In this document: positions 4,286 through 61,206 of the stretch, piece by piece
How the letters are laid out: each line of letters opens with the position of its first letter
Numbering within the stretch: the first letter of the stretch is position 1
Assembly: GCA_963747985.1 (NCBI GenBank)
Contig: CAVVHG010000001.1
Coordinates: 329,963 to 393,962 of the forward strand
From: an uncultured Acidobacteriota bacterium
GTDB taxonomy: Bacteria > Acidobacteriota > UBA6911
Direction: 5' to 3'
Length of the DNA: 64,000 nt
The notes under the pieces: model-generated
Seen by the model: the letters and a program-made list of their open reading frames with translations, nothing else
What the model was told of the DNA's origin: nothing
Database searches by the model: none
Made by a program: the position numbers and the translations under genes

Positions 4286-5525
4286 TCAATGTGCACCAAG
4301 CAAGTCGAGCGCGGTCAGGAGCTGCGTGTCCTTGCTGTCATGAAGCTGGGCAGCAGTCATATCTCTTTCTTCTTGCGGAAATACCTGGGATGTCTCCGGA
4401 GGCAACTCCACCGCGATCTCCGGTGTGATTCCCTTGTGCCAGATGACATGCCCGGCGGGAGTCAACCATTCCTCCACCGCCAGCAGCAGGGCGGAGCCGT
4501 CAGACATCGGGAATTCGTTGAGTACGGTGCCCGTGCCGATCGTCCTGAGCCCGACCAGCTTGGCGCGGTTCGCATCCCTGAGCGCACCCGCCACAATCTC
4601 GGCGGCGCTGGCGGTACCGCCGTTGACCACGACAACCAACGGAATTGTCGTAGCCGCCCCGCCGGGCTTGACGGGGATCGGCTTGATGTTGCCATGTGCA
4701 TCCTTTACCAGCAGCACATTGCCGCCAGTCAGAAACTGGCTGGCAGCGCCAACCGCCTCCTCCAGCAATCCGCCGGGATTGTTCCGCAGATCCAGGACGA
4801 TTCCCTTCAACCCGCTGCGGCCGATCTCCGACAAAGCAGCGCGCAGGTCAGCGGTCATGCCCCGCCCGAAGCTGGCAATGCGCAGATGTGCCACCCCGGT
4901 ACCCGGCGACTGCTGCCAGGTGACATCGTGGACAGTAATTGAGGCGCGCACGAGAGTAACCTCGCGCGACCGGCCCGATGACGGGGTCAGAATTGTGAGA
5001 GTCACCGATGTTCCAGGGTGTCCGGATATTCGCGCCACGACCTGATCGAGCGGCAGGCCGGCGACATCGTGCCCGTCGACTCTGAGAATGATATCGCCGG
5101 CGCGCAGGCCCGCTCGCTTTGCGCGGAGAATCGTCCAGGGGGGCGACGACCACCACGTGCCCGGCCCTGATCTGGATCTCAGCGCCGACTCCCTCGAGCT
5201 TGTTCTGCTGAAGGTTCCTGAGTGCCTTGACCATCTCGGGGTTCAGGAAACGGCTGTGCCCCGTGTCACCCAGAGCGTCCACCATCCCGCTTATGGCGCC
5301 ATAGCTCATGGCCTGAGGTTGGACCACGGCGCGATCCACGTAGACATCCTGGATGATCTTCCATGCCTCAGGGATCAGGCGAAAATCGGCACCCGTCTCG
5401 AGCGATCCGAATCCCTCTGCCGCCACGCGATCCAGTGCGATGCCGGCGACAAAACCCAGCACCAGAACGAACATCAGCAGAAAGACCGGCGTTTTCATTT
5501 CCCTGAAGATACTGGGTGCTCTCAT
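4286..5525 (-). pseudogene. ctpA: C-terminal processing protease (peptidase S41, CtpA/Prc-like), frame disrupted by a 1-nt indel near 5118-5126 (or sequencing error)
   Basis: N-terminal part (ORF 4848..5525: signal anchor, ...AISGMVDALGDTGHSRFL..., [23 protein letters not shown]) and C-terminal part (ORF 4286..5038: PDZ ...[15 protein letters not shown]..., GIVLDLRNNPGGLL, VVVNGGTASAAEIVAGAL) lie in different frames. Removing one c in tctccgcgcaaag restores ...[18 protein letters not shown]... Confidence 0.7.
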
Positions 5526-5595
5526 TCGTCGGTTCCTCCGACAGACAAGTATGCGCCGGTTTACTGCGCTCCGCTTGAATCTTCCGGTGCTGGAC

Positions 5596-6008
5596 TTCGG
5601 GTGCTAGTTGGGGCGCGGATTCCGCGCGGCATCCTGGTGGCTTCCTCTGTGCTCGCGGCGCTCAAACTGGCGTTCTCGCTCGGCGTCTTCCTCTATGGGC
5701 ACTACTCGCTCAGGCTCGATATGCGATCCTTGCAGACGCTGACCTTTGCGACTCTGATCCTCAGTTCGCAGGCCGGGGTCTACCTACTGCGCGAGCGAGG
5801 ACACTTCTGGCAGTCGCGTCCGGGTCGCTACCTCGTGGGTAGCTCCGTGTTGGGCCTGGGCGTCACCGTGCTGCTTGCGCTTGGCGGCATCCTCATGCCG
5901 GCGGTCGGCGTGTCGGTCCTGCTGGGAGTGGCGGCCGCAGGCGCAGTCTGCTTCGCCGCCCTCGATTGGGTGAAGGTTTGGCTGTTTGCGCGGCTGGCCC
6001 TGCGTTGA
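5596..6008 (+). pseudogene. Membrane-protein C-terminal fragment (two to three TM helices) loosely resembling the C-terminal end of a P-type ATPase; likely a gene remnant or small membrane ORF
   Basis: Only the 3' ~135 codons of ORF 5088..6008 look protein-like (...TLTFATLILSSQAGVYLLRERGHFWQSRPGRYLVGSSVLGLGVTVLLALGGILMPAVGVSVLLGV...); the 5' part of that ORF is antisense to ctpA; no N-terminal domains present. Confidence 0.3.
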
Positions 6009-6432
6009 CTCCTGGAGAACGGAACGACAGTTTTTCCCTCGGTTTCCATCGTCTCACCTCTCGGCATTCCATGCCGAGGTTCCGGCTCGTGGACGCAGTT
6101 TCAAATCGTCGCCGACCATAACACCCGCTGTCCGTGCTCTGATTTAATCCCATCCGGAGCAGCAATAACCATAGGCAAAGATCCCTATTTCCCTGTTGGT
6201 AGAACTACGCAGGCTGCCGGGGTGAACCCTGAAATCGCAGTGTTCCCCCATGGCCCTGGTGGGCCGTTCCATCAATTTCTTCGGATCCACGATGGAGACG
6301 CCCGGCGCCCCCTGATGCGCAGCAGGTCCAGGCAGGCATCCCCGGATGTCAGACGGCTGACTCTCAGAGGCCCCCCTTATTTCTTGAAGACGTCGTGGAG
6401 ATCCCTTAACATTTCCGGCGCTGAGCACTCAC

Positions 6433-6864
6433 ATGAAACGTGTATTCAGGAAGTCAGGCGCGCGATTCTGCGGCCACGCGATGATCATCCTCGCCGGGAT
6501 TGCACTGCTGTTCCCCGGCTCGGCTTCTGTGCTCTGCATCGCACCCGGGGGCCATGTGGCTGTTGAAGACATCAACGCCGCGTGTTGCGCACGCTCCGCA
6601 ATCGGTATCCGGGCTGGAAACCAGCCAGGCAATGGGTTCGCCACAGCAGGGGGTTGCCAGAACTGCACGGACGTCTTCATTGCCCAGAGCGCACGGGGAA
6701 CGATCACAGAATCGCGCGATACTGTTACTTCGAATTCACTCGCAGACGCATACCTGCAGGGTAACTTCCCCGCGGACACTCGCTATTCATCACGCCGATC
6801 AGCCCCTGTCGCAGGGACAGGTCCGCCTGCGGCTGCCGCTTCATCGGTCCCGCTTCGCTGCTAG
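6433..6864 (+). CDS. Hypothetical Cys/His-containing secreted protein immediately upstream of czcCBA (possible metal-binding accessory protein)
   Basis: 143 aa, N-terminal hydrophobic signal (MIILAGIALLFPGSASVLC), motifs CIAPGGH, AACCARS, GGCQNC; no recognisable family; weak RBS. Confidence 0.3.
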   Translation: MKRVFRKSGARFCGHAMIILAGIALLFPGSASVLCIAPGGHVAVEDINAACCARSAIGIRAGNQPGNGFATAGGCQNCTDVFIAQSARGTITESRDTVTSNSLADAYLQGNFPADTRYSSRRSAPVAGTGPPAAAASSVPLRC

Positions 6865-7035
6865 GCCTCCTGCATTTTCGTCCTGGAATCGAACGCCTCA
6901 GGGCAGAGATGCTGCAATTCTGCCGGCGTTGGTCCGCAGGGGATCTCTCGTACGAAGTTCAGGCTGCCGGTTTCTGGAGAAGTGCGGCAGTCCCGAGATC
7001 TCCGGCATGTCCAGTAGCCCTTCCGATCAGAGAGC

Positions 7036-8331
7036 ATGTCTATGTCAGTCAACGGATCGAGCATCCGGGTCTTACTCTTCCTGGCGGTTGTCGTGAGCAC
7101 GCCTCGCATCGAGGCGCGGGAATCGGATATCCCGTCGCGCCTGACTCTCGAGGCTGCCATCCGTCTGGCGATCGGCCGGAACCCTGCTCTCCAGGCAGCA
7201 AAGAACGAGGTCCAGGCGTTCGAGGGAGACAGAATCGCGGCAAACAAGCGGCCCAATCCCGCATTCAGCCTGGAGGCGGAAGACTATCCCATCAGCACGA
7301 ACCCGGGGCCTTTCTTCGAGACCCAGGAGATAACCCTCCGATTCGACTACGAAATAGAGCGAGGCGGTCGCAGACGGTTGCGGACCGAGGCGGCCCGGCA
7401 GGCGTTGGAGTCTCAGCGGCTCGCCTACCAGGACCGGGTCCGCCTGCTGACGCTCGAGGTCGAGCGCGCCTTTTCCCGGGCGATCCTGGCGAAGTCCAAC
7501 CTGGAGACCTCGCAGTCGCTTCTGGAGGAGACGGAACGGATGATTTTGCTGAACCGGGTGCGATTCGAGCAGGGTGAGATATCGGCCCTGGAACTGAATC
7601 GAATCGAGGTGGAGAAGCTCAAATTCCAGGACGACGTATTCCAGGCTGACCTCATGATGCGCAACGCAAAGAGCTCGCTGCTGGCTTTGCTGAACGCACC
7701 CGACCTCTCACAGGATGTGGATATTACCGGCACACTCCAGGTGACCGCGCAGGCCTCAGAACCGGGACTGCCGCCGCAAGCTCCCCTCACTGAACTGCTG
7801 CGAATCGCCTACGAACGAAGACCTGATATGGCTTCCCGCCTGGAGGAGAAACGACGAGCCGATACGGAAGCCCTGCTGCAACGGGCGACCAGGTCTCCAA
7901 ACATCACGGTCGGCGGTGGATACAAAAGGAACCTTGCCGACAATGCGGTTGTCTACGGTGTGACGATTCCACTGAAGATCTTGAATCGGAACGAGGGGGA
8001 AATCGTTCGCGCGGAAGCCGAACAGATGCGCGCCATGAATCTGGCGGCTGCGGTTCGAAAAGAAATCGAACTGAACGTCCAGCAGGCATTCAACGCGGTT
8101 GAAGTGAACCGCCAGCGCGTCGGGTACATCGGGACGCAGTACATGAAGAAGGCCGAGGAAGCCAGCCGGGTCACTCTCGAATCCTACAATCTCGGCGGTG
8201 CGACCCTGCTCGACTATCTCGATGCGCAAAGGGCCTATCGCGACACGCTGCGCATATACAACCAGGCCCTATTCGACGAGCGCATCAGCCTGTACGAACT
8301 GGCAAGCTCAATAGGGTCAGGAGTCGAATGA
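7036..8331 (+). CDS. czcC: Outer-membrane efflux protein (TolC/CzcC family) of an HME-RND system
   Basis: 431 aa, signal peptide, OEP repeats (LTLEAAIRLAIGRNPALQAAKNEVQA...); stop overlaps czcB start (ATGA). Confidence 0.8.
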   Translation: MSMSVNGSSIRVLLFLAVVVSTPRIEARESDIPSRLTLEAAIRLAIGRNPALQAAKNEVQAFEGDRIAANKRPNPAFSLEAEDYPISTNPGPFFETQEITLRFDYEIERGGRRRLRTEAARQALESQRLAYQDRVRLLTLEVERAFSRAILAKSNLETSQSLLEETERMILLNRVRFEQGEISALELNRIEVEKLKFQDDVFQADLMMRNAKSSLLALLNAPDLSQDVDITGTLQVTAQASEPGLPPQAPLTELLRIAYERRPDMASRLEEKRRADTEALLQRATRSPNITVGGGYKRNLADNAVVYGVTIPLKILNRNEGEIVRAEAEQMRAMNLAAAVRKEIELNVQQAFNAVEVNRQRVGYIGTQYMKKAEEASRVTLESYNLGGATLLDYLDAQRAYRDTLRIYNQALFDERISLYELASSIGSGVE

Positions 8332-12917: not shown

Positions 12918-13403
12918 ATGTCAATGCAACGAACGGTTTCATTCACCCTCAATGGCAAGCCGACGAGCGTGACGGTTGACCAGGAGCGCATGCTGCTCTG
13001 GGTGTTGCGCTATGACCTCGGCCTCACAGGCACGAAGTTCGGCTGCGGTGCCTCACTGTGCGGTGCCTGCACGGTCCTGGTGGACAAGGAAGCCGTCAGG
13101 TCCTGCTCGACCCCCATTAAAGAGGTCGCCGGGAAACAGGTTCTGACTATCGAAGGGCTCAGCAGGGACGGACGGCTTCATCCGCTGCAGGAGGCGTTTC
13201 TGAAACACAAGGCGTTTCAGTGCGGCTTCTGCACCTCGGGGATGATCCTCAACGCCTACGCCCTGCTCCTCAGGAAGCCGCGGCCGACGCGCGCGGAAAT
13301 CATTCGGGAGATGGACGACAACCTCTGCCGGTGCGGTTCGCATACGCGGATCCTGGATGCGATCCAGGAGGCATCCGGCGCGATGAAAGGGGGTACGCGA
13401 TGA
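12918..13403 (+). CDS. (2Fe-2S)-binding small subunit of a molybdenum hydroxylase (IorA/CoxS-like)
   Basis: Two [2Fe-2S] motifs (CGASLCGACTV; CGFCTSGM...CRCGSH); ATG 12918/12924 with GGAG RBS; stop overlaps next gene (ATGA at 13400). Confidence 0.8.
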   Translation: MSMQRTVSFTLNGKPTSVTVDQERMLLWVLRYDLGLTGTKFGCGASLCGACTVLVDKEAVRSCSTPIKEVAGKQVLTIEGLSRDGRLHPLQEAFLKHKAFQCGFCTSGMILNAYALLLRKPRPTRAEIIREMDDNLCRCGSHTRILDAIQEASGAMKGGTR

Positions 13404-15553
13404 AGAGCGACGACACGAATGTGAATGTCGGCCCCGCACAGGGGGTTCCAGCAGATTTGAGCCGTCGCGGTTTCTTTGCGATCACCGGGTCAGGCCTGTT
13501 CGTGTTCTTCCGGGTCGGGAATCTGGACGGGTTCCAGGAACCCGCGCGGCTGCCGGCAAGACAAGGATATCCGGCCGATTTCAACGCTTACCTGCGCATC
13601 GGAGCCGATGGCCGGACGACGTGCTTCGTGGGCAAGGTTGAGCTGGGCCAGGGGTCGAAAACCACACTCGCGCAACTCCTCGCCGAGGAACTCGACGTCG
13701 CATTTGATTCGGTGGACATGGTGATGGGGGACACGGACCTCTGCCCTTGGGACATGGGCACGTTCGGGTCGCTGAGCGTGAGGCAGTTCGGCCCGGTGCT
13801 GCGCGGCGCCGGCGCCGAGGCGAGGGCGGTCCTGCTCCGGATGGCCGGCGAACGGCTCCAGGCCCCCGCGGACGGGCTGCAGGTGAAGGACGGTGTCGTC
13901 ACGGACCCGTCGGGCCCGGGCAAACGCGTAACCTATGCGCAACTGGTGGCAGGGAAACGGATCGAGCGGCATCTCGAGAAAGTACCGGTAAAGCCGGTCA
14001 CCGCTTACACCGTGGTCGGTCAATCGGCGCCCCGGAAGGATGCGCTCGAGAAGGTCACGGGCAACGCGAAATATGCCGGTGATCTGGTGCCTCCAGGAAC
14101 GCTGCATGCCCGGATCGTGAGGCCGCCGGCGCATGGTGCGACGCTGAAGGACGTCGACACGACCGAGGCGGGAAGGGTCGAGGGAGTCCGTGTCGTAAGA
14201 GACGGTGATCTTATCGCCGTGCTCCACGAACGGCCTGACGTGGCCGATCGGGCGCTCTCTCTCATCAAAACGAAGTTCGACCGCACTCAGACAGGACTGG
14301 ACGACAGGACCATCTTCGAACACCTGGTCAAGGCCGTCCCTGAAGGCCGCGTGGTAAGCGAGGGCGGCAGCCTCGCGGAAGGCGAAAAGCTCGCCGCGAC
14401 CTTCATCGAACGCACCTATCTGAACAGCTATGTCGCGCACGCGGCCATGGAGACTCACTCCGCCGTCGCGACGGTCGAGGGAGGCAAAGCCACGGTCTGG
14501 GCAGGAACTCAAACACCCTTCCCGGTCAAGCAGCAGGTAGCCCAGGCGCTCGGTTTCGCTCCCGAGAACGTGCGCGTCATCGTTCCCTATGTGGGCGGCG
14601 GCTTCGGAGGCAAGAGCGCATCCAGGCAGGCCGTCGAAGCGGCCCGGCTTTCGAAAGCGGTGGGAAAGCCGGTCCAGGTTGTGTTTGATCGCGCGGAGGA
14701 GTTCTTCTACGACACCTTCAGGCCGGCGGCCGTCGTCAAGATCCGATCGGGCCTCACAGGCGACGGCAAGATGATCCTTTGGGACTACAACGTCTACTGC
14801 GCGGGCGACCGCGAGGCGAAGCAGTTCTACGACATCCCCAACCAGCGTACCGTTTCGGCAGGAGGCTGGGGCGGGGAGAGCACCCCCGGCCTGCACCCCT
14901 TCGGGATCGGACCGTGGCGCGCACCGTCGGTCAATACGAACACCTTTGCGCGCGAGTCGCACATCGACATCATGGCCTCCCAGCTCGGCGTCGACCCTCT
15001 CGAGTTCCGCCTGCGCCACCTGAGCGACCGGCGTGTCAGGGGCGTTTTGGAGGCAGCCGCGAAACAGTTCGGCTGGAAGCCGGTGCGGATGCCGAGTGGC
15101 CGCGGAGTAGGGATTTCGTGCGCCATCTACCTTGGCACGTACGTGGCCCTCATGGCGGAGGTGGCTGTGGACAAGGCCACAGGCCAGGTCCAGGTCAAGC
15201 GCGTCGTTTGTGCCCAGGACGAAGGGGTAATAGTCAATCCGGACGGTTCCCGACAGCAGATGGAGGGGAGCATCACGATGGGCCTCGGGTATGCGCTCAG
15301 CGAAGAGGTTCGTTTCAAAGACGGCGAGATTCTCGACCGCAATTTCGACACGTATGGGATTCCGCGCTTCTCGTGGCTGCCGAAGATCGAGACGGTGCTG
15401 GTGGAAAACCGCGAGGTTCCGGCGTCGGGATGCGGTGAGCCGCCGATTGTCAACATGGGGGCGGTGATAGCCAACGCCATCTACGATGCTTCGGGCGCCA
15501 GGCTGCTGCAGCTGCCGATGACGCCGGCCCGCGTCAAGGAGGCGCTGGCCTAG
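13400..15553 (+). CDS. Molybdopterin-binding large subunit of an aldehyde/isoquinoline oxidoreductase-type enzyme (IorB-like), TAT-exported
   Basis: 717 aa; twin-arginine signal SRRGFFAITGSGL; MoCo-binding family motifs (VGKVELGQGSKTTLAQL, GGGFGGKS); a longer N-terminal extension in the ORF track is overlap artefact. Confidence 0.8.
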   Translation: MKSDDTNVNVGPAQGVPADLSRRGFFAITGSGLFVFFRVGNLDGFQEPARLPARQGYPADFNAYLRIGADGRTTCFVGKVELGQGSKTTLAQLLAEELDVAFDSVDMVMGDTDLCPWDMGTFGSLSVRQFGPVLRGAGAEARAVLLRMAGERLQAPADGLQVKDGVVTDPSGPGKRVTYAQLVAGKRIERHLEKVPVKPVTAYTVVGQSAPRKDALEKVTGNAKYAGDLVPPGTLHARIVRPPAHGATLKDVDTTEAGRVEGVRVVRDGDLIAVLHERPDVADRALSLIKTKFDRTQTGLDDRTIFEHLVKAVPEGRVVSEGGSLAEGEKLAATFIERTYLNSYVAHAAMETHSAVATVEGGKATVWAGTQTPFPVKQQVAQALGFAPENVRVIVPYVGGGFGGKSASRQAVEAARLSKAVGKPVQVVFDRAEEFFYDTFRPAAVVKIRSGLTGDGKMILWDYNVYCAGDREAKQFYDIPNQRTVSAGGWGGESTPGLHPFGIGPWRAPSVNTNTFARESHIDIMASQLGVDPLEFRLRHLSDRRVRGVLEAAAKQFGWKPVRMPSGRGVGISCAIYLGTYVALMAEVAVDKATGQVQVKRVVCAQDEGVIVNPDGSRQQMEGSITMGLGYALSEEVRFKDGEILDRNFDTYGIPRFSWLPKIETVLVENREVPASGCGEPPIVNMGAVIANAIYDASGARLLQLPMTPARVKEALA

Positions 15554-15620
15554 ATCACAACCCGGTCCAAGGGGCAGGGCCGGGGCCCTGCTCCGATCAC
15601 TCGATACAGGAAGGAGTCCT

Positions 15621-16460
15621 ATGTCCGATTTCTCAAGACGTGCATTCCTGCGCACGACCACAGCAGGGGCCGCCGCACTCATGGCGGGGAATGTGCCCGG
15701 AGTTGTCGCAGCGCGGAAGAACATCCCTATCGGAGTTCAGCTCTATTCCGTGCGGAATTATATACCTAACGACGTGCCCGGCACCCTCGCGGCCATAAAG
15801 AAGATGGGCTACGACGGGGTTGAATTTGCCGGCTACTACGGAAAGGATGCCGGAACGCTGCGCCAGTGGCTGGATGACAACGGCCTGAAATGCTGCGGCT
15901 CGCATGTCGGCCTGCAGACCGTCACCGGCGATCAACTCTCTGCGACCATCGAGTTCAACCAGGCACTGGGCAATGAGTTCCTGATCGTCCCGTCGGCGAG
16001 GGGCGTCAGCACCATCGATGCCTGGACCAAGCTTGCCGAGACGCTGAGCGGCATCGCCGGGAAGCTGAAGCCGCTCGGGATGTATGTCGGATTTCACAAC
16101 CACTCCGTCGAGTTCCAGCCTATTGACGGGCAGCTACCCATGGATGTCCTCTTCGGGAAGGCGGCCAGGGAAGTGGTCATGCAGCTCGACGTCGGCCACT
16201 GCGTGCAGGCGGGAGCTGATCCCGCTGTATATCTGAACCGGTACCCCGGTCGGGCGCTTACCGTGCACCTGAAGGAGTGGTCATCCACCAGGAAGGATGC
16301 CGTTGTGGGCGAGGGCGACGTGAAGTGGCCCCCGGTTTTTGAGGCATGCGAGGCGGTCGGGGGTACCCGGTGGTATATCCTCGAGGAGGAAACCGGAGCA
16401 TTCAGCGGCCTCGATGGTATAGAAAAGAGTATCCAGAGCCTGAAGAAGTTGCTCGCCTGA
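15621..16460 (+). CDS. Sugar-phosphate isomerase/epimerase (xylose-isomerase-like TIM barrel) with TAT signal
   Basis: MSDFSRRAFLRTTTAGAAALMAG TAT motif; AP-endonuclease-2/XylA-like TIM-barrel pattern (GYDGVEF..., FHNHSVEF). Confidence 0.65.
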   Translation: MSDFSRRAFLRTTTAGAAALMAGNVPGVVAARKNIPIGVQLYSVRNYIPNDVPGTLAAIKKMGYDGVEFAGYYGKDAGTLRQWLDDNGLKCCGSHVGLQTVTGDQLSATIEFNQALGNEFLIVPSARGVSTIDAWTKLAETLSGIAGKLKPLGMYVGFHNHSVEFQPIDGQLPMDVLFGKAAREVVMQLDVGHCVQAGADPAVYLNRYPGRALTVHLKEWSSTRKDAVVGEGDVKWPPVFEACEAVGGTRWYILEEETGAFSGLDGIEKSIQSLKKLLA

Positions 16461-16486
16461 AGTGGGTCCGACAGGCCCGGTGTGAC

Positions 16487-16747
16487 GAGGCTGTCTCAGA
16501 ACTCTATGGAGCGGGCCTTCAGCCCTCGAAGGCATTGTCGATTCCATACCTGGCGCATTGCGCCAGGCTGGTATGAGTCGGGCCTCCGGCCCTCCCGGAA
16601 CGGGGCCAAGAGCAAGTCCTAGTGTCCAAAATCGAATAGAAGCGCCGAAGGCGCGGGCCATACCAGCCTGGGGCGAAGCCCCAGGAATTGTACCCATAAA
16701 CGAAAGAGGGCTGAAAGCCCGAATCATAGTTGGTTCGAGACAGCCTC
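16487..16747. repeat. Approximately 260-nt nested inverted-repeat element (candidate MITE or highly structured ncRNA) in the 316-nt gap between convergent genes
   Basis: Outer arms 16487-16527 versus 16706-16747 (about 34/41 complementary, gaggctgtctc...gagacagcctc); inner perfect 13-bp pair ccaggctggtatg (16563-75) / cataccagcctgg (16659-71); several internal GC palindromes (ggcgcattgcgcc, ggcctccggcc, gcgccgaaggcgc, ggggcgaagcccc). Confidence 0.55.
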
Positions 16748-16776
16748 AACAGACTGGACCTGCTTGCAGGCATTCT

Positions 16777-18132
16777 TCAGGCCGGATCACGATTCATCCT
16801 TTGCAGCGACAGCAGATTCAGCATGAGCTGCCGGGGAGGATGGTAATTGTCCTGCCGGCTCACGTGAGGCTGTTGGATCATCTGCCGGTCCGCAAACAGC
16901 ATGTAACCGGGTTGGCCGAACCTTTTTCGCGAGAACTTCCCGTCGATCACGTCCTGTGCCATCCCGTAGAAACGCTCCGCCCATTCCGCGCCCGTGCGCG
17001 CGAATATCTTCAGACAGGCAACCATGATCTCGTTGAGTGACCACAGCGTTTTCATGTAGTGGTACTCACCGCGGAAGCGGAACTCGAGGTCTGTTCCGAC
17101 GGGCCGCTCCACCGGCCAGATGTAGTCTCCCCGGTCGACATTGACCCACTGCGAGAGGCCGCCGTAAACCCAGTCCCAGCCGACTTCGATGTGCCGCCGG
17201 ATGCGCTCGGCGCACAGATTCCACATGTCGAGGTCGCTCCTGCGCTGCGCCTCTTCCATTACCATCCAGAGGGTCTCGATCGAGTGGCCGGGAAGAGACT
17301 TGTGCTCCTCTCCGGCCGGCCTCGTGAAGTCGAAGTTGAGGTTCTCGTTGTTGAGGCCGATGTCGGGGTTGAAGTGCCTGTTGATCACTGCATCCACGGC
17401 CTGCTGCGCGAGCGCATCGATTTCCGGCTCCTTCCACCTGCTCAGCATCTGTGTGGCGATGTTGAGGTTGACCATCCACAGGCCCTGCGGCCGGATCCCG
17501 GCGCCGGGTGTTCCGGGGATCGCAACGCGGGGCTCCTCTATGTGCCGATGGAGCTTCTTCAACAGGCCGAGGGCCATCTGAAAGGACTCCTCGTGTCCCG
17601 CCGCCCAGGCGTATTCCTGCAGCCCCTCCGCAACAAAGTACATGCCGTAGAGATCGCCCTGGAATCCCCGTAATATCCTCCCGTCACGCGCGAGCAATTC
17701 CGCCCACCAACCGTCCGGTTGCGGGGCGTGCCGGAGCACGAACTCGCGCGTCTGTGCTGCGATCTGCAGGTGGCGCGGATCCCTTCCGAAGTTGTTATAG
17801 AGGAAGCTGTAGACCCAGATTGCGCGGCCCTGAAACCAGAGCAGCTTGTCTGAATGAGCCAGCGTTCCGTCGTAGTCCAGGCCGTGCATGACGCCGCCAA
17901 ATTCGTGGTCGACGCCGTATCTGTCCCAGAAAGGCAGCACTGCGTTAAAGAGATCATCGCGGCAGCGCCCTTGAAGTTCACCGGGTGTCATCCCGGCCAA
18001 CCTGACTTGCGGGTTCGCCGAGGACGGTGTAGAAGACTTCTCCCTGCAGGCCGACAGCAGCCCTGCTCCTGCGGATCCGACAAAGGTGCGACGTTTCATT
18101 TTATGGATGCTCCGGTCGGTTGATATTAGCAC
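16777..18132 (-). CDS. N-acylglucosamine 2-epimerase (AGE) superfamily protein (cellobiose/mannose/sulfoquinovose-isomerase-like (alpha/alpha)6 barrel), exported
   Basis: 451 aa; AGE-family pattern; probable true start at MKRRTFVGSAGAGLLSAC (18099; TAT/lipobox-like). Confidence 0.6.
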   Translation of the reverse strand: MLISTDRSIHKMKRRTFVGSAGAGLLSACREKSSTPSSANPQVRLAGMTPGELQGRCRDDLFNAVLPFWDRYGVDHEFGGVMHGLDYDGTLAHSDKLLWFQGRAIWVYSFLYNNFGRDPRHLQIAAQTREFVLRHAPQPDGWWAELLARDGRILRGFQGDLYGMYFVAEGLQEYAWAAGHEESFQMALGLLKKLHRHIEEPRVAIPGTPGAGIRPQGLWMVNLNIATQMLSRWKEPEIDALAQQAVDAVINRHFNPDIGLNNENLNFDFTRPAGEEHKSLPGHSIETLWMVMEEAQRRSDLDMWNLCAERIRRHIEVGWDWVYGGLSQWVNVDRGDYIWPVERPVGTDLEFRFRGEYHYMKTLWSLNEIMVACLKIFARTGAEWAERFYGMAQDVIDGKFSRKRFGQPGYMLFADRQMIQQPHVSRQDNYHPPRQLMLNLLSLQRMNRDPA

Positions 18133-18198
18133 TGGTTATGATGCATTCTTCCTCATCATGTGAAGGCATGTCGTGATCCGCCCGGATGGAGGTGGCAG

Positions 18199-18681
18199 AT
18201 GAAATCGGGTCTCTCAACGCTCGCGCCTGCGGCAGTCGTGCTTCTTTTCCCGCTTTTTTCGGCTGGCGGCCAGGCGGCAGAGGAGATTACAAAGGAGAAG
18301 ATCCTCGCCGCAGGCCAGGACTGGCAGCAGAAGTATGACCAGTGCCAGCCCGCTCCGGACATGTTGGAGGCGGTGAAGTCTAAGCTCGGAGCCGACCTCA
18401 GGGTCGATGTCTATCTGGGGCTGTGGTGTCCCGACTCCCTCAATAATGTGCCTCCTTTCATCAAGATTGTCGACGGCCTCGGGACTGGAGTGACCGTCCG
18501 GTACTTCGCCCTGCCCAGGAAGGCCGACAAGGCGATCCAGTACTTTGTCGAAAAACAGAAGGTGGAGCGAGTGCCGACCTTCATTTTCTACCGGGGCGGC
18601 AAAGAGATCGGTCGCATCGCCGAGAATCCGAAAGCAGGCATGCTCGAGGATTTCATGGACATCGTTTTCATGGGAGAGTGA
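18199..18681 (+). CDS. Thioredoxin-fold protein (WCPDS active-site-like motif), secreted
   Basis: ATG 18199 with GGAGGTGG RBS; signal peptide; WCPDS motif; TlpA/thioredoxin-like. Confidence 0.55.
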   Translation: MKSGLSTLAPAAVVLLFPLFSAGGQAAEEITKEKILAAGQDWQQKYDQCQPAPDMLEAVKSKLGADLRVDVYLGLWCPDSLNNVPPFIKIVDGLGTGVTVRYFALPRKADKAIQYFVEKQKVERVPTFIFYRGGKEIGRIAENPKAGMLEDFMDIVFMGE

Positions 18682-26172: not shown

Positions 26173-27312
26173 ATGAGGAAGGAAAACGTGAACCGCCGTC
26201 GATGGATTCTCGCTTTTTTGCTGCCGATCTCCCTGTGGGCACCCGTGAACGGGAACGCGCTTGTCGATCCGCCAATGCTCGCGATCGGCTCTCCTGCCCC
26301 GGATTTCAATCTCCCCGGCGTAGACGGGAGGAACCACAAGCTGTCCGATTTTGCGGACGCAAAGGTCCTGGTGGTTGTATTCACGTGCAATCACTGTCCA
26401 ACGGCCCAGGCCTACGAGGAGCGGATCAAGTCACTCGCGCAGGACTACCGCGGGAAGGGAGTGGCGCTGGTCGCGATATCGCCTAACGATCCCAAGGCGG
26501 TTCGCCTCGATGAACTGGGCTACACCGATCTCAGCGATTCGTTCGAGGAGATGAAGATCCGGGCGCAGGATCAGAAGTTCAACTTTCCCTACCTGTATGA
26601 CGGGGAAGACGAAAGAGTCTCCCGCGCCTACGGTCCGACCTCCACCCCCCACCTGTTCATTTTCGACAGCAATCGCAAACTGCGCTACGCCGGCCGGGTC
26701 GATGATTCCGAGAAGCCGGGCAAAATCAAGTCCAGCGATGCGCGAAATGCCATCGAAGCGCTGCTTGCCGGCCGACCGGTGCCTGTTGAAAAGACGAAGA
26801 CCTTCGGTTGTTCGATCAAGTGGTCGGACAAGAGGGCATCTGTCAACTCGGCCTTCAAACAGTGGGCTGGCGAACCTGTATCACTCCAGGTGGTCGACGA
26901 GGCGGGAATCCGGGCAGTGGTCCGGAATGACTCGAAAAAACTCCGCCTTATCAATATCTGGGCGACCTGGTGCGGGCCGTGCGTGGTCGAATTTCCGGAG
27001 CTCGTGACGATCAACCGGATGTATCGTGGCAGGGAATTCGAGTTCGTGACGATCAGCGCCGACGCGCCGGAGAACAAGGATCAGGCACTGGCTTTCCTCA
27101 AGAAGCAGCAGGCATCATCGAGCAACCACATCTTCAGCATCGACGACAAGTACAAACTGGTCGAGGCGGTGGACAAGGAATGGGCCGGCGCGTTGCCGTA
27201 CACGATTCTAGTCGAGCCCGGCGGGAAGATCATCTACCGCGTCCAGGGAGAGTTGTCGCCGTTGGAGCTGAAAAAGGCGATCGTCGCCCGTCTCGGCCGG
27301 TATTACCCCTAG
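26173..27312 (+). CDS. Secreted tandem redoxin/thioredoxin-like (AhpC-TSA/TlpA-like) protein
   Basis: 379 aa; signal peptide; two thioredoxin-fold domains (VVVFTCNHCP and WATWCGPCVVEFPEL). Confidence 0.7.
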   Translation: MRKENVNRRRWILAFLLPISLWAPVNGNALVDPPMLAIGSPAPDFNLPGVDGRNHKLSDFADAKVLVVVFTCNHCPTAQAYEERIKSLAQDYRGKGVALVAISPNDPKAVRLDELGYTDLSDSFEEMKIRAQDQKFNFPYLYDGEDERVSRAYGPTSTPHLFIFDSNRKLRYAGRVDDSEKPGKIKSSDARNAIEALLAGRPVPVEKTKTFGCSIKWSDKRASVNSAFKQWAGEPVSLQVVDEAGIRAVVRNDSKKLRLINIWATWCGPCVVEFPELVTINRMYRGREFEFVTISADAPENKDQALAFLKKQQASSSNHIFSIDDKYKLVEAVDKEWAGALPYTILVEPGGKIIYRVQGELSPLELKKAIVARLGRYYP

Positions 27313-27396
27313 ATCTGTCCGAGTGTGCCCGCTCTTCCGGAGCGGACCCGGAGATTTCGCCCCTGGCAGCAGGGGGTCCGGTCTGTCAGACCGGAA

Positions 27397-29289
27397 CTAC
27401 TTATTCTGAATGATCGGGAATGCCGTGAATTCCTGGCCTGGGGGAATCTCGTAGTAAGGCATGTATTCGTACGCCTTCGGGGACCATGCCTCGTCCTCCC
27501 GCAGCGCCCAGTATCCCCGCTCAATTGCGATCTGGTAGTGCAAAGGCTTTCCGGCGACCGGCATCAACCAGGCCGAAGGCTGGGCAGGGTCATTCAGGAT
27601 GCGGATCGTTTGCTGGAAATTGAACTTGCCCGCCAGTCCGAGCAGCAGGGGGCCATACTCGAGAGAGTATCGCGGGAAGCCGGCGATCTGATCGTAGCCC
27701 TCGTAACGCCTCATCCGGAAATCCATCGGCAGGCTGAATGAAATCTCGTCGCCGGGCAACCATCGCCGCTCGAGGTGGCAATAGCTCCCGGGGATCCCCG
27801 CCCTGAACGTCTTGCCGTTCAGCCGGATCTCCACGGAGTGCGCCGCCCAGGAGGGGATGCGCAGGCTCAGTGTAAAGGCGACAGGCTGCTCGCCTCCGAC
27901 CTTCAGAGTCACATCACCGGTTTGAGGGAATGTGGTGGCCGCAACGAGCTTCACATCGACATTCCCCTGCTTCCACGAGATTTCGGATGGGGCGTAGATG
28001 TTCACGTAGATTCCGCCGGGGGATTGGGAGTAGAGGTACTCGGGGAGTGAGCCGAAGAGACGGGTCCCCTGTCCCTCGCAGCATGTTCCCTCCGGAGGAG
28101 TGACCGGCACCTCCTTCTTGGCGTCGAGGACCGTGTGATATCCGATGCCGGAATCCCCGATTTGATTCCCGATGCCGGCGTTGTAGATCGACTTCTCGAT
28201 CTCGTTCACGAAGACCTCGCTGTCCGGGAAGAGGAGATGCAGGCGCTGGTTGAGCTTTACCCAGAACACGGCGCAGCAGAGTTCCCCCGCCCGGCTGGAT
28301 AGCCCAAGCTGGTACGATTTCGGCGGGTAGCGGCGGCGCTCGCACAAAGCCCACGACCCGCCCGGCATCTGCCACTTATCGCGCAACATTTCCCATGCAT
28401 TCAGAACCGCCTGGAGGTACTTCATGTCGCCAGTGATGCGGTACAGGTCCAGGTAAGCTTCAAACGCCGTAATCTCGTAGCAGTGCGATTCAGGCCGGTC
28501 GTAGATGGCCCTGTCGTCGTTGGCAAGCAACTGGGAGAGCCACCAGTCTTCCTGGTAGCGATCAAGGATCAGGTTCAAGTCATCCGGCCGGCCGAGCGGG
28601 GAGAGGTACATACGGGTCGATGAGATCATCCCCTGGTACGGGATCCAGTGGTCGGGAATGTAGCCCCGGCTCTTGTCTACGACCTGTCCCAGGTACTCAC
28701 AGTGGTTGAACCAGTCCAGGTGGCCGCGGATCAGCGCCAGGGCCTCGGGATTGCCGGCGGCGGCCGCGTCGATGAGGCCATGCGTAATCCAGGCGCGGAC
28801 GTAGTTGGCATTCTCGCGCAGCCCGGTGTCCTTTTCCGGGTAGCCCATGATGAACCCGTTCGGCTGCCTGCAGGCCGCTATCCCGGAGACAACAGCGTTC
28901 ATCCTGTCCCGGAGCTTCGGGTTTTCCTCCCAGCGCAGGGCGTTGCCGCTTCCCATCAGGAAGAGGCCCGCAACCGAACCTGTGACGCGCGGGCCGCCGT
29001 TGTCCCATGGGAAGGGTTTCCCCGGGGGATCCGGCTTTCCGGCGCGCTCACGGAAAACGTGGAGCAGGTCATTCTCAGAGAAGTTCTTGAGCAGGTACTT
29101 GACGTTGTTGTCGTATGCTTGCTTCAGTACTCCGCCGGTCAGTTTGACACCGCCGACAGGCGTCTGAAGCTGAAAAGGTATTGCCACTGGATTCCGTGGC
29201 GTCTCGGAGGCGCGGCTGGAACGTGCGGCCACCGTCCCGGCCGCAAGGAACAGCGTGATTGACATTGTTGCGAGACTGCGTTTTTTCAT
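27397..29289 (-). CDS. Glycoside hydrolase family 127 (DUF1680, beta-L-arabinofuranosidase HypBA1-like), secreted
   Basis: 630 aa; signal peptide; DUF1680/GH127 pattern including Cys-rich region (GTCCEGQGTRLF); paralogous to 39842..41725. Confidence 0.7.
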   Translation of the reverse strand: MKKRSLATMSITLFLAAGTVAARSSRASETPRNPVAIPFQLQTPVGGVKLTGGVLKQAYDNNVKYLLKNFSENDLLHVFRERAGKPDPPGKPFPWDNGGPRVTGSVAGLFLMGSGNALRWEENPKLRDRMNAVVSGIAACRQPNGFIMGYPEKDTGLRENANYVRAWITHGLIDAAAAGNPEALALIRGHLDWFNHCEYLGQVVDKSRGYIPDHWIPYQGMISSTRMYLSPLGRPDDLNLILDRYQEDWWLSQLLANDDRAIYDRPESHCYEITAFEAYLDLYRITGDMKYLQAVLNAWEMLRDKWQMPGGSWALCERRRYPPKSYQLGLSSRAGELCCAVFWVKLNQRLHLLFPDSEVFVNEIEKSIYNAGIGNQIGDSGIGYHTVLDAKKEVPVTPPEGTCCEGQGTRLFGSLPEYLYSQSPGGIYVNIYAPSEISWKQGNVDVKLVAATTFPQTGDVTLKVGGEQPVAFTLSLRIPSWAAHSVEIRLNGKTFRAGIPGSYCHLERRWLPGDEISFSLPMDFRMRRYEGYDQIAGFPRYSLEYGPLLLGLAGKFNFQQTIRILNDPAQPSAWLMPVAGKPLHYQIAIERGYWALREDEAWSPKAYEYMPYYEIPPGQEFTAFPIIQNK

Positions 29290-61172: not shown

Positions 61173-61206
61173 AAACGGGCGCAGGAGTAGCTTCCTGCGC
61201 CCGTTT
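61173..61206. terminator. Bidirectional hairpin terminator between convergent TonB-dependent receptor genes
   Basis: Perfect 14-bp stem aaacgggcgcagga / tcctgcgcccgttt with 6-nt loop gtagct, T-rich on the + side (gtttgatt); 17 nt downstream of the minus-strand stop. Confidence 0.5.

Follow-up and report, generated by a model that had tools for sequence, protein, structure and literature searches.

A tail-to-tail doublet of Acido-Lenti-1 units between two convergent Acidobacteriota genes is probably a REPIN/BIME-like mobile repeat associated with a Y1 transposase

Why are two convergent genes of an uncultured Acidobacteriota bacterium separated by a large nested palindrome? The intergenic gap in question covers positions 16461-16776 (316 nt) of a 64,000-nt stretch of contig CAVVHG010000001.1 (hereafter the window) and lies between the stop codons of the convergent open reading frames (ORFs) 15621..16460 (+) and 16777..18132 (-). 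A preliminary description, made from the sequence alone, had left the choice among a miniature inverted-repeat transposable element (MITE), a mosaic resembling repetitive extragenic palindromic (REP) sequences or bacterial interspersed mosaic elements (BIMEs), a large structured RNA and an elaborate bidirectional terminator. According to the present analysis, positions 16485-16749 are probably a non-autonomous element similar to BIMEs and to the REP doublets forming hairpins (REPINs), consisting of two units of about 90 nt of the Acido-Lenti-1 family placed tail-to-tail, bounded by GAGGCTGTCTC and landed in a small hairpin between the two genes. In its behaviour it resembles a small parasitic DNA element linked to a transposase of single-stranded DNA, and not a small RNA (sRNA) gene, which makes it an ordinary kind of object.

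The gap was rightly described as something other than ordinary spacer. When folded as RNA it reached -162.4 kcal/mol on the + strand (z -7.60) and -165 kcal/mol on the - strand (z -7.43), values that no shuffled sequence equalled, and positions 16472-16762 folded as single-stranded DNA gave -76.5 kcal/mol (z -7.56), so that the nested palindrome folds far beyond shuffles on both strands and as RNA or DNA alike. The outer repeats that had been reported consist of an exact 11-nt pair, GAGGCTGTCTC at 16487..16497 (+) and GAGACAGCCTC at 16737..16747 (which is GAGGCTGTCTC on the - strand and is followed by AA), together with arms of 24-26 nt that are 81-83% complementary (pair I2, 16472-16497 / 16737-16762, 81%; pair I3, 16504-16527 / 16706-16729, 83%). 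The inner 13-nt inverted pair CCAGGCTGGTATG was found at 16563-16575 (+) and 16659-16671 (-) with 0 mismatches, and all four short GC-rich hairpins were located, at 16552-16564, 16581-16591, 16642-16654 and 16670-16682.

The core of the gap consists of two full-length matches, in opposite orientation, to a catalogued Rfam family, RF01687 (Acido-Lenti-1), which the preliminary description had not named. The match at 16549..16593 (+) covers all 46 model positions with 37.1 bits and thus reaches the gathering score of 37 by 0.1 bit, and the match at 16641..16685 (-) covers the full model with 41.1 bits. Both have the layout of the family (an 8-bp hairpin, a conserved linker of about 12 nt and a 5-bp hairpin), and by Rfam's own criterion the element is a member of RF01687. 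The known taxonomic range of the family agrees with the window, since the named relatives of a flanking gene are Acidobacteria. Weak Rfam matches in the gap to snaR-A, ar45, MS2 and archaeal SRP were rejected as lying far below the gathering scores and reflecting the palindrome.

The repeated unit is longer than the Rfam model. At a constant distance before each Rfam match there is a further copy of the module formed by TATGnnnCG, a small hairpin and a T, and the full unit of about 90 nt has the order hairpin 2a, a spacer of about 21 nt, hairpin 1, CTGGTATGnnnCG and hairpin 2b. These longer flanks, i.e. the upstream hairpin and a TCYTTCGTTTA spacer, are present also in the Lentisphaera sequences of PMC2864571. 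Extended unit A, as placed by nhmmer, lies at 16505..16593 (+) and scores 89.6 bits with our model R1, although unit A was in the training set of R1. It consists of TATGnnnCG and hairpin 2a (stem 16513-16516 / 16522-16525), a 22-nt spacer, hairpin 1 (16549-16567), the linker CTGGTATGAGTC (16568-16579) and hairpin 2b (16580-16584 / 16588-16592). Extended unit B, likewise placed by nhmmer, lies at 16641..16728 on the - strand, with hairpin 2b at 16642-16654, hairpin 1 at 16667-16685 and hairpin 2a at 16708-16720. The two units are 72% identical and are separated by a central spacer of 47 nt (16594..16640) that is not conserved. The long stem of the gap exists only because these two units lie in opposite orientation, and the suggestion of one large structured RNA is therefore unlikely.

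The unit is dispersed over many genomes. Genomes were scanned with a 20-base pattern taken from hairpin 1 and the linker, with exact bases required, and at least 114 genome stretches were matched. They belong to Verrucomicrobiota, Acidobacteriota, Planctomycetia, Nitrospirales, Rhodanobacteraceae, Fibrobacterota and Hydrogenedentota, and a genome often contributed several loci; the genome of the window is not among the matches listed. Several loci were found in single metagenome-assembled genomes (MAGs), e.g. CAVRAD01, JAUICH01, JBAXSN01 and JAUIHU01, and the parts of the unit that the pattern did not constrain were conserved in nearly all of the 118 hits. An nhmmer profile search of the fetched loci found 207 units from 108 sources, arranged as head-to-head pairs (45), tail-to-tail pairs (17, with the window included), tandem junctions (21, all of them in one locus, L105) and solo units (63). 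Only 20% of the units were inside ORFs of at least 200 aa, as compared to 77% of all bases. These results agree with the proposed REP/BIME-like mosaic, i.e. a dispersed repeat family that occurs solo, inverted and in tandem and is mostly extragenic.

The doublet is repeated as well as the unit. The unit order and the GAGGCTGTCTC ends of the window element recur in dispersed copies at L008, L039, L045, L055, L065, L083, L093 and L101, and tail-to-tail doublets with GAGGCTGTCTC(A/G)AAC ends were found at seven loci of the Acidobacteriota MAG CAVRAD01 and at one locus of a second MAG. These doublets have well-defined ends (in the CAVRAD01 copies the terminal repeat is present at both), lie in unrelated flanks and share about 70% identity with the window element along about 240 nt; the central spacer of the window element is 18 nt longer than that of the CAVRAD01 copies and unrelated in sequence. 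The dispersed copies that had been proposed as a check thus exist for the unit and for the doublet. Among the matches listed, the nearest single units are those of L007, L017 and L038, from another Acidobacteria MAG, and unit B is 88% identical over 122 nt to a unit on the metagenome contigs L125 and L126.

At the ends of the doublets in L039, L045, L055, L065, L083, L093, L101 and L008 the adjoining hexamer is either CTTCAG or CTGAAG. The choice at one end does not depend on that at the other, and the hexamers continue the palindrome perfectly in only part of the copies. Three of the doublet copies have, about 40 nt upstream, a solo hairpin, GTGGGTCGGGGC-TTCA-GCCCCGAC.

The repeats are associated with a gene for a Y1 transposase of the HUH type. 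When ORFs of at least 100 aa were clustered across the 114 pattern-found loci among the matches listed, the largest cluster was a 150-aa protein encoded directly beside the units, with matches to Pfam PF01797 Y1_Tnp (E about 1e-23) and to NCBIfam NF033573, IS200/IS605 transposase. No other recurring cluster of these loci was a mobile-element gene; the remaining ones were ordinary housekeeping proteins kilobases away (esterase, sulfatase, oxidoreductase, SDR and ABC proteins). The Y1 gene was present in eight pattern-found loci, abutted by units, and in the six that were examined in full inverted units were found on both sides (in L003 the downstream one is a variant unit). In the flanks that were read or modelled, the bracketing units are on the - strand upstream and on the + strand downstream and abut the ends of the gene, with their hairpin-2a ends toward it. 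An independent test was begun from the Y1 protein. At E <= 1e-10 it had at least 7,966 relatives, the majority of them encoded on contigs shorter than 2 kb. Among the loci on long contigs chosen in this way, all four distinct ones had a - unit abutting the start and a + unit abutting the stop of the gene, and three of the four had a tail-to-tail partner downstream. Some of these relatives carry the JGI name "REP element-mobilizing transposase RayT". In the fetched loci the units far outnumber the Y1 genes (207 vs 8).

An alignment of 12 Y1 proteins showed invariant D54 H55 V56 H57, W95 Q96, Q119, H122 and H123, with Y115 in 11 of the 12, and the proteins share a Y-x3-Q-x2-HH motif and a conserved C-terminal tail of about 30 aa. 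Their sequence matches in the PDB were only to IS200/IS605 transposases (2F4F, 2XM3 and 2A6M/2VJV), and these were weak (E 0.03-0.35); the E. coli TnpA-REP structure 4ER8 was not among the matches at E <= 1.

One locus, L105 (positions 36-2171 and 5566-7513 of an Acidobacteriota MAG contig), has a Y1 gene at 5134-5583 with 11 tandem units directly downstream and 12 further units about 3 kb upstream, all of them on the + strand with a 182-nt period, while a single inverted unit abuts the start of the gene. Most of the Y1 relatives among P0121-P0240 are on contigs of 0.5-2 kb, which suggests that the flanking repeats break metagenome assemblies at these places.

Evidence of an insertion at the present locus came from two related contigs. 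L115, the contig of the nearest relative (P0001) of the epimerase encoded by ORF 16777..18132, has 85% nucleotide identity in both flanking genes and a gap of 103 nt without a unit, and L116 has 78% on the epimerase side and a gap of 80 nt without a unit. Both contain an uninterrupted GGTCCGGTCTG/CAGACCGGACC hairpin, the arms of which are about 265 nt apart in the window. The hairpin of L115, CAGGTCCGGTCTG-A-CAGACCGGACCTG, has a folding energy of -23 kcal/mol (z -6.1). On the strand of L115 the window reads CAGGTCCAGTCTG-TT-[ GAGGCTGTCTC ... GAGACAGCCTC ]-GT-CACACCGGGCCTG, which places about 265 nt (16485-16749, i.e. the terminal inverted repeats, the doublet and its central spacer) between the arms of a pre-existing hairpin (16472-16484 / 16750-16762). 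The left arm, CAGGCCCGGTGTG at 16472..16484 (+), is identical at 11 of 13 positions to the arm of the L115 hairpin CAGGTCCGGTCTG-N-CAGACCGGACCTG, and the right arm, CAGACTGGACCTG at 16750..16762 (+), has one mismatch to CAGGTCCGGTCTG on the - strand. These junctions were read by hand; an automatic three-way alignment paired the arm of the window with the first of two hairpins in L115. The epimerases are 88% identical between the window and L115, 85% between L115 and L116 and 83% between the window and L116, which places L116 outside the pair formed by the other two and makes one insertion more parsimonious than two deletions. The interrupted hairpin may have been the original terminator of the convergent genes.

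The strongest competitor of a mobile DNA repeat is the reading under which the family is filed. The Acido-Lenti-1 motif was obtained by Weinberg et al. 2010 from 89 sequences, mostly from Lentisphaera araneosa and Koribacter versatilis, and rated as "probably RNA" on the basis of covariation, with an occasional position near group II introns as the only recorded association (PMC2864571, with the rating in supplementary file 2); Rfam gives its type as Gene; sRNA. On this reading the gap would encode a small trans-acting RNA or two of them, or else a single large structured RNA, the hairpins would be RNA structure, and the two units do reach the gathering score of the family. The covariation is real. 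In an alignment of 92 units (A1), 96.9% of the cells over the 17 base pairs of the three hairpins were paired and nine of the 17 pairs had changed on both sides; for helices 2 and 3, the part covered by RF01687, 97.1% and 96.1% of the cells were paired with three and four doubly changed pairs, respectively. The covariation score of 0.211 exceeds those of shuffles (0.055) and of slid partners (0.085 at most). The proposed check by folding and covariation thus gave a positive result, with compensatory changes that keep all three hairpins, and this indicates that hairpin formation is under selection. The same signature is equally expected, however, of hairpins that are recognised on single-stranded DNA.

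Several further observations argue against an RNA gene. Among the non-Watson-Crick cells of the three hairpins in the 92 units, read on the Rfam strand, A-C (28) was more frequent than G-T (10), counts which are not phylogenetically independent, and given that G-T is not commoner than A-C the cells lack the wobble signature that an RNA read from that strand would leave. Units of both orientations are found at one locus, head-to-head, tail-to-tail and in tandem, with 23 copies around a single Y1 gene; they flank a transposase gene, and the site that is filled here is empty in related contigs. No promoter-like sites were found in 15500-18300. The Rfam seed itself is arrayed: in the 2010 coordinates it forms runs with periods of 74, 110-115 and 192-200 nt, and the strands alternate within a few hundred bases. 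Taken with these data, an RNA gene at this locus is improbable, and the sRNA label of RF01687 looks wrong. Tolerance of wobble pairs, if there is any, would be on the strand complementary to that annotated by Rfam.

An elaborate bidirectional terminator, or a structure stabilising the 3' ends of the mRNAs, that evolved in place for the convergent genes would be expected directly after both stop codons and to fold very strongly on both strands, as is observed, and two sites with a hairpin and a T-rich tract are present on the - strand inside the element (16654-16642 and 16720-16708). However, three terminator-like sites in the region compare with 1.6 +/- 1.1 in shuffles, and in the related contigs that share the neighbourhood a 25-nt hairpin suffices in the corresponding position. 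Since the inserted part is homologous to dispersed repeats of other phyla it has not evolved in place, and we regard such an origin as quite improbable. It is possible that the repeat, once inserted, was co-opted and secondarily influences termination or mRNA stability, which would not conflict with the interpretation favoured here.

The exact 11-nt terminal inverted repeats, the discrete ends and the dispersal in related genomes are what a classical MITE would have, that is, a deletion derivative of an insertion sequence with a DDE transposase that moves by cut-and-paste via its terminal inverted repeats. The proposal of a MITE agrees with the data in so far as the element is present here and missing at the same site in related contigs, but not in its classical form. 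A target-site duplication, which the preliminary description had advised looking for, was not seen at the filled/empty junction or in eight aligned copies (an AT beside the CAVRAD01 copies could equally belong to the palindrome), and no DDE transposase recurred near the units in the ORF clustering of the 114 loci among the matches listed. The interior units are also found solo and in other arrangements, and the only gene flanked by units is the Y1 HUH transposase. A classical MITE is thus very improbable.

That one of the overlapping ORFs 16346..16576 (+), 16519..16773 (-), 16281..16727 (-) or 16558..17040 (+) is a genuine small protein gene can practically be dismissed, for although the four ORFs are present, none of them had a Pfam match, the DNA is missing from related contigs that share the neighbourhood and the sequence is accounted for by non-coding repeat units that occur in both orientations; the first two were correctly suspected to be shadows of the palindrome.

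Among known systems the resemblance is to REPtrons, in which REP, BIME or REPIN repeats are combined with a REP-associated tyrosine transposase (RAYT, or TnpA-REP) (PMC3116915, PMC3337134, PMC3479197, PMC6006769). As in those systems, the units are extragenic palindromes found singly, in inverted doublets and in clusters, two inverted units fold into one long hairpin like a REPIN (here units 16505-16593 (+) and 16641-16728 (-)), the Y1 HUH gene is bracketed by its own repeats in inverted orientation and insertion takes place without target duplication. The gene-repeat arrangement is REPtron-like. The unit is of a different make, with about 90 nt and three hairpins against 20-40 nt for a canonical REP. 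A further parallel is found in the TIRtrons or TIRYTs (Di Nocera et al. 2013, PMC3733652) and in the class 3 Y1 proteins with atypical structures (PMC6006769), Y1 genes of Acidobacteria and Planctomycetes flanked by inverted repeats without GTAG. Part of these repeats are "double palindromic", and some form moderately abundant families with dimers or clusters. The present system is similar in having a Y1 gene with inverted repeats lacking GTAG, and dimers and clusters. An assignment of the protein to class 3 was rejected on motifs, as NHVH, W[TA], YV..EQ and the CnGA foot fit neither the protein nor the repeat.

The protein instead resembles the TnpA-Y1 proteins of subclass 1.2, which have a median length of 148 aa, the motifs DH[IV]H, WQ and YIKNQKEHH and a short conserved C-terminal tail (Quentin et al. 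2018, PMC6006769). The 150 aa, the DHVH, WQ and Y-x3-Q-x2-HH motifs and the C-terminal tail of the associated Y1 proteins are alike, a membership that was judged by motifs only. Subclass 1.2 has the entry "REP: no" and is described as lacking typical terminal structures and as found mainly in Cyanobacteria and Bacteroidetes (PMC6006769, Table 1), whereas the Y1 genes of this study belong to Verrucomicrobiota, Acidobacteriota and Hydrogenedentota and have abundant repeats on their flanks. With IS200/IS605 elements the system shares the protein fold family, hairpins that could be read on single-stranded DNA, insertion without target duplication and a size of about 700 bp for the Y1 gene with its flanks. 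It differs in that the flanking structures are inverted and not direct, in that the repeats far outnumber the genes and in that the element of the window carries no gene.

A Y1 enzyme encoded elsewhere in the genome would, by analogy, recognise the hairpins of the units on single-stranded DNA, and would cut and rejoin them, thereby copying or moving units and doublets in trans. Such handling of hairpins is established for IS608, ISDra2 and E. coli TnpA-REP (PMC6006769, PMC3479197), and it is from this precedent together with the adjacency of gene and repeats that we infer binding and cleavage of the Acido-Lenti-1 hairpins by Y1. Judged by conservation, candidate cleavage sites are GGCTGGTATG before hairpin 2b and the GAGGCTGTCTC ends. 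At the present locus the insert is probably neutral and without a dedicated function. Its effect would at most be a longer hairpin at the 3' ends of both convergent transcripts, and given this lengthening and the two terminator-like sites inside the element, termination or mRNA stability may be influenced as a side effect.

Several points weigh against the interpretation as a REPIN/BIME-like insertion. No Y1 gene was found in the 64-kb window by tblastn, and no further copies were found within the 64 kb with two motifs allowing mismatches, with Rfam at E <= 10 or with our own covariance model run unfiltered. The conservation at the 20 positions of the scan pattern is by construction. At the locus itself, the relatives could have lost a long palindrome by deletion instead, which is less parsimonious, and the gap of L115 holds two similar hairpins (5342-5362 and 5391-5411), which makes the state before insertion ambiguous: by distance from the stop codons the two arms of the window could correspond to the outer arms of these two hairpins, and insertion into one loop and replacement of about 50 nt between the hairpins are both possible. 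Around head-to-head doublets, which are from other phyla, the flanks had 3.3 complementary bases, as compared to 3.4 in controls, and insertion into hairpin loops is thus not a family-wide rule (for tail-to-tail doublets this test is confounded by the terminal repeats of the element itself). With respect to the REPtron comparison, canonical REPs have GT[AG]G at the 5' foot of the hairpin and the Acido-Lenti-1 units do not: hairpin 2b is preceded by the conserved GGCTGGTATG, three variable bases and CG, and hairpin 2a only by (T/A)ATG, and GTAT is not GT[AG]G. The RAYT/TnpA-REP proteins (class 2, PMC6006769) have the Y motif Y---NP and the associated Y1 the IS200-like Y---Q--HH. Without the GTAG tag and the Y---NP motif the element cannot be filed with canonical REP-RAYT systems, although it is REPIN/BIME-like in its working.

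For the family as a whole we favour, with less assurance than for the insert, the view that Acido-Lenti-1 is not an RNA gene but the REP-equivalent repeat partner of the Y1 proteins with Y---Q--HH (subclass 1.2), with a three-hairpin unit of about 90 nt that lacks GTAG and is present in at least six phyla, and that in this lineage may prefer the loops of a second hairpin family. RF01687 would in that case be filed as an sRNA gene while being half of a dispersed DNA repeat tied to a Y1 gene, in a range far wider than the two phyla of its original description. The family itself was already known; what appears to be new is that an "sRNA" family is the repeat partner of a Y1 subclass reported to be without repeats. 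RF01687 should probably be re-typed as a repeat element, and annotations of "Acido-Lenti-1 sRNA" would then likely mark copies of the repeat. The Y---Q--HH subclass gains a candidate DNA substrate, by which its function can be tested in vitro. Given that most contigs with the Y1 gene are under 2 kb, these repeats also seem to break metagenome assemblies in Verrucomicrobiota and Acidobacteriota. For the window the outcome is that two false ORFs are removed and an odd intergenic palindrome is explained as the insertion of a mobile repeat.

A metagenome scan with a lineage-specific end pattern gave two contigs, L125 and L126, which represent one locus, unrelated to that of the window. The junction of stop codon, GGTCCGGTCTG, TT and GAGGCTGTCTC is repeated there, the right arm of the interrupted hairpin abuts the element end there as well and the right-end junction GAGACAGCCTC-AA-CAGACC is identical in L125. 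Similar flanks, GTCCGGTYT, adjoin doublets in L007 and L038, and an uninterrupted member of the hairpin family is present elsewhere in the window, at 27373-27399. The shared junctions and the uninterrupted hairpin suggest that the doublet prefers such hairpins or that the arm sometimes travels with it. Insertion sequences that target the loops of REPs, such as IS1397, ISKpn1 and ISPpu9 (for the last, PMC8450116), offer a parallel. In both cases a mobile element lies inside a pre-existing small extragenic hairpin of a repeated family, but the REP-targeting insertion sequences are autonomous and have their own transposase and the insert of the window is a non-coding doublet, for which the preference is suggested by two independent junctions and two similar flanks.

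The uninterrupted hairpin of the window belongs to a region (27329-27399) between the convergent ORFs 26173..27312 (+) and 27397..29289 (-), which contains the hairpins GCCCGCTCTTCCGGAGCGGAC and GGTCCGGTCTG-T-CAGACCGGAAC, the latter of the same family as 16472-16484 / 16750-16762 and the pair of L115. An exact pattern for this latter family gave 0 matches in the window, where the copy at 27373-27399 has one mismatch, and 2 in L115. These hairpins look like a second, low-copy extragenic family, and are possibly terminators. In L125 (1-70) and L126 (385-440 and 605-655) a long perfect palindrome, CCCAGGGTTGAAACGCGCG...CGCGCGTTTCAACCCTGGG, lies beside degenerate Acido-Lenti-1 units, and repeats of at least two families are intermingled there.

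Of the genes that flank the gap, 15621..16460 (+) encodes a xylose isomerase-like TIM barrel protein (Pfam PF01261, E 6e-17, with the match reaching residue 276 of 279) and 16777..18132 (-), with its stop codon at 16777-16779, a protein of the AGE family (N-acylglucosamine 2-epimerase-like; Pfam PF07221, E 1e-14). The nearest relatives of the latter are P0001 (88% identical) and P0005 (83%), and its named homologues are from Acidobacteria and Bryobacteraceae MAGs. L115 carries the end of the matching TIM-barrel gene. Positions 5407-6039 of L116 match 15014-15546 of the window, inside ORF 13220..15553, which has Pfam molybdopterin cofactor-binding domains (MoCoBD). The TIM-barrel gene separates the MoCoBD ORF and the epimerase in the window and in L115 and is missing between them in L116, which indicates that this gene is variably present. 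Elsewhere in the window, at 61173-61206, a weak Rfam match to tpke11 was obtained on both strands with identical coordinates (20 bits, E 8-10), which points to a short palindrome.

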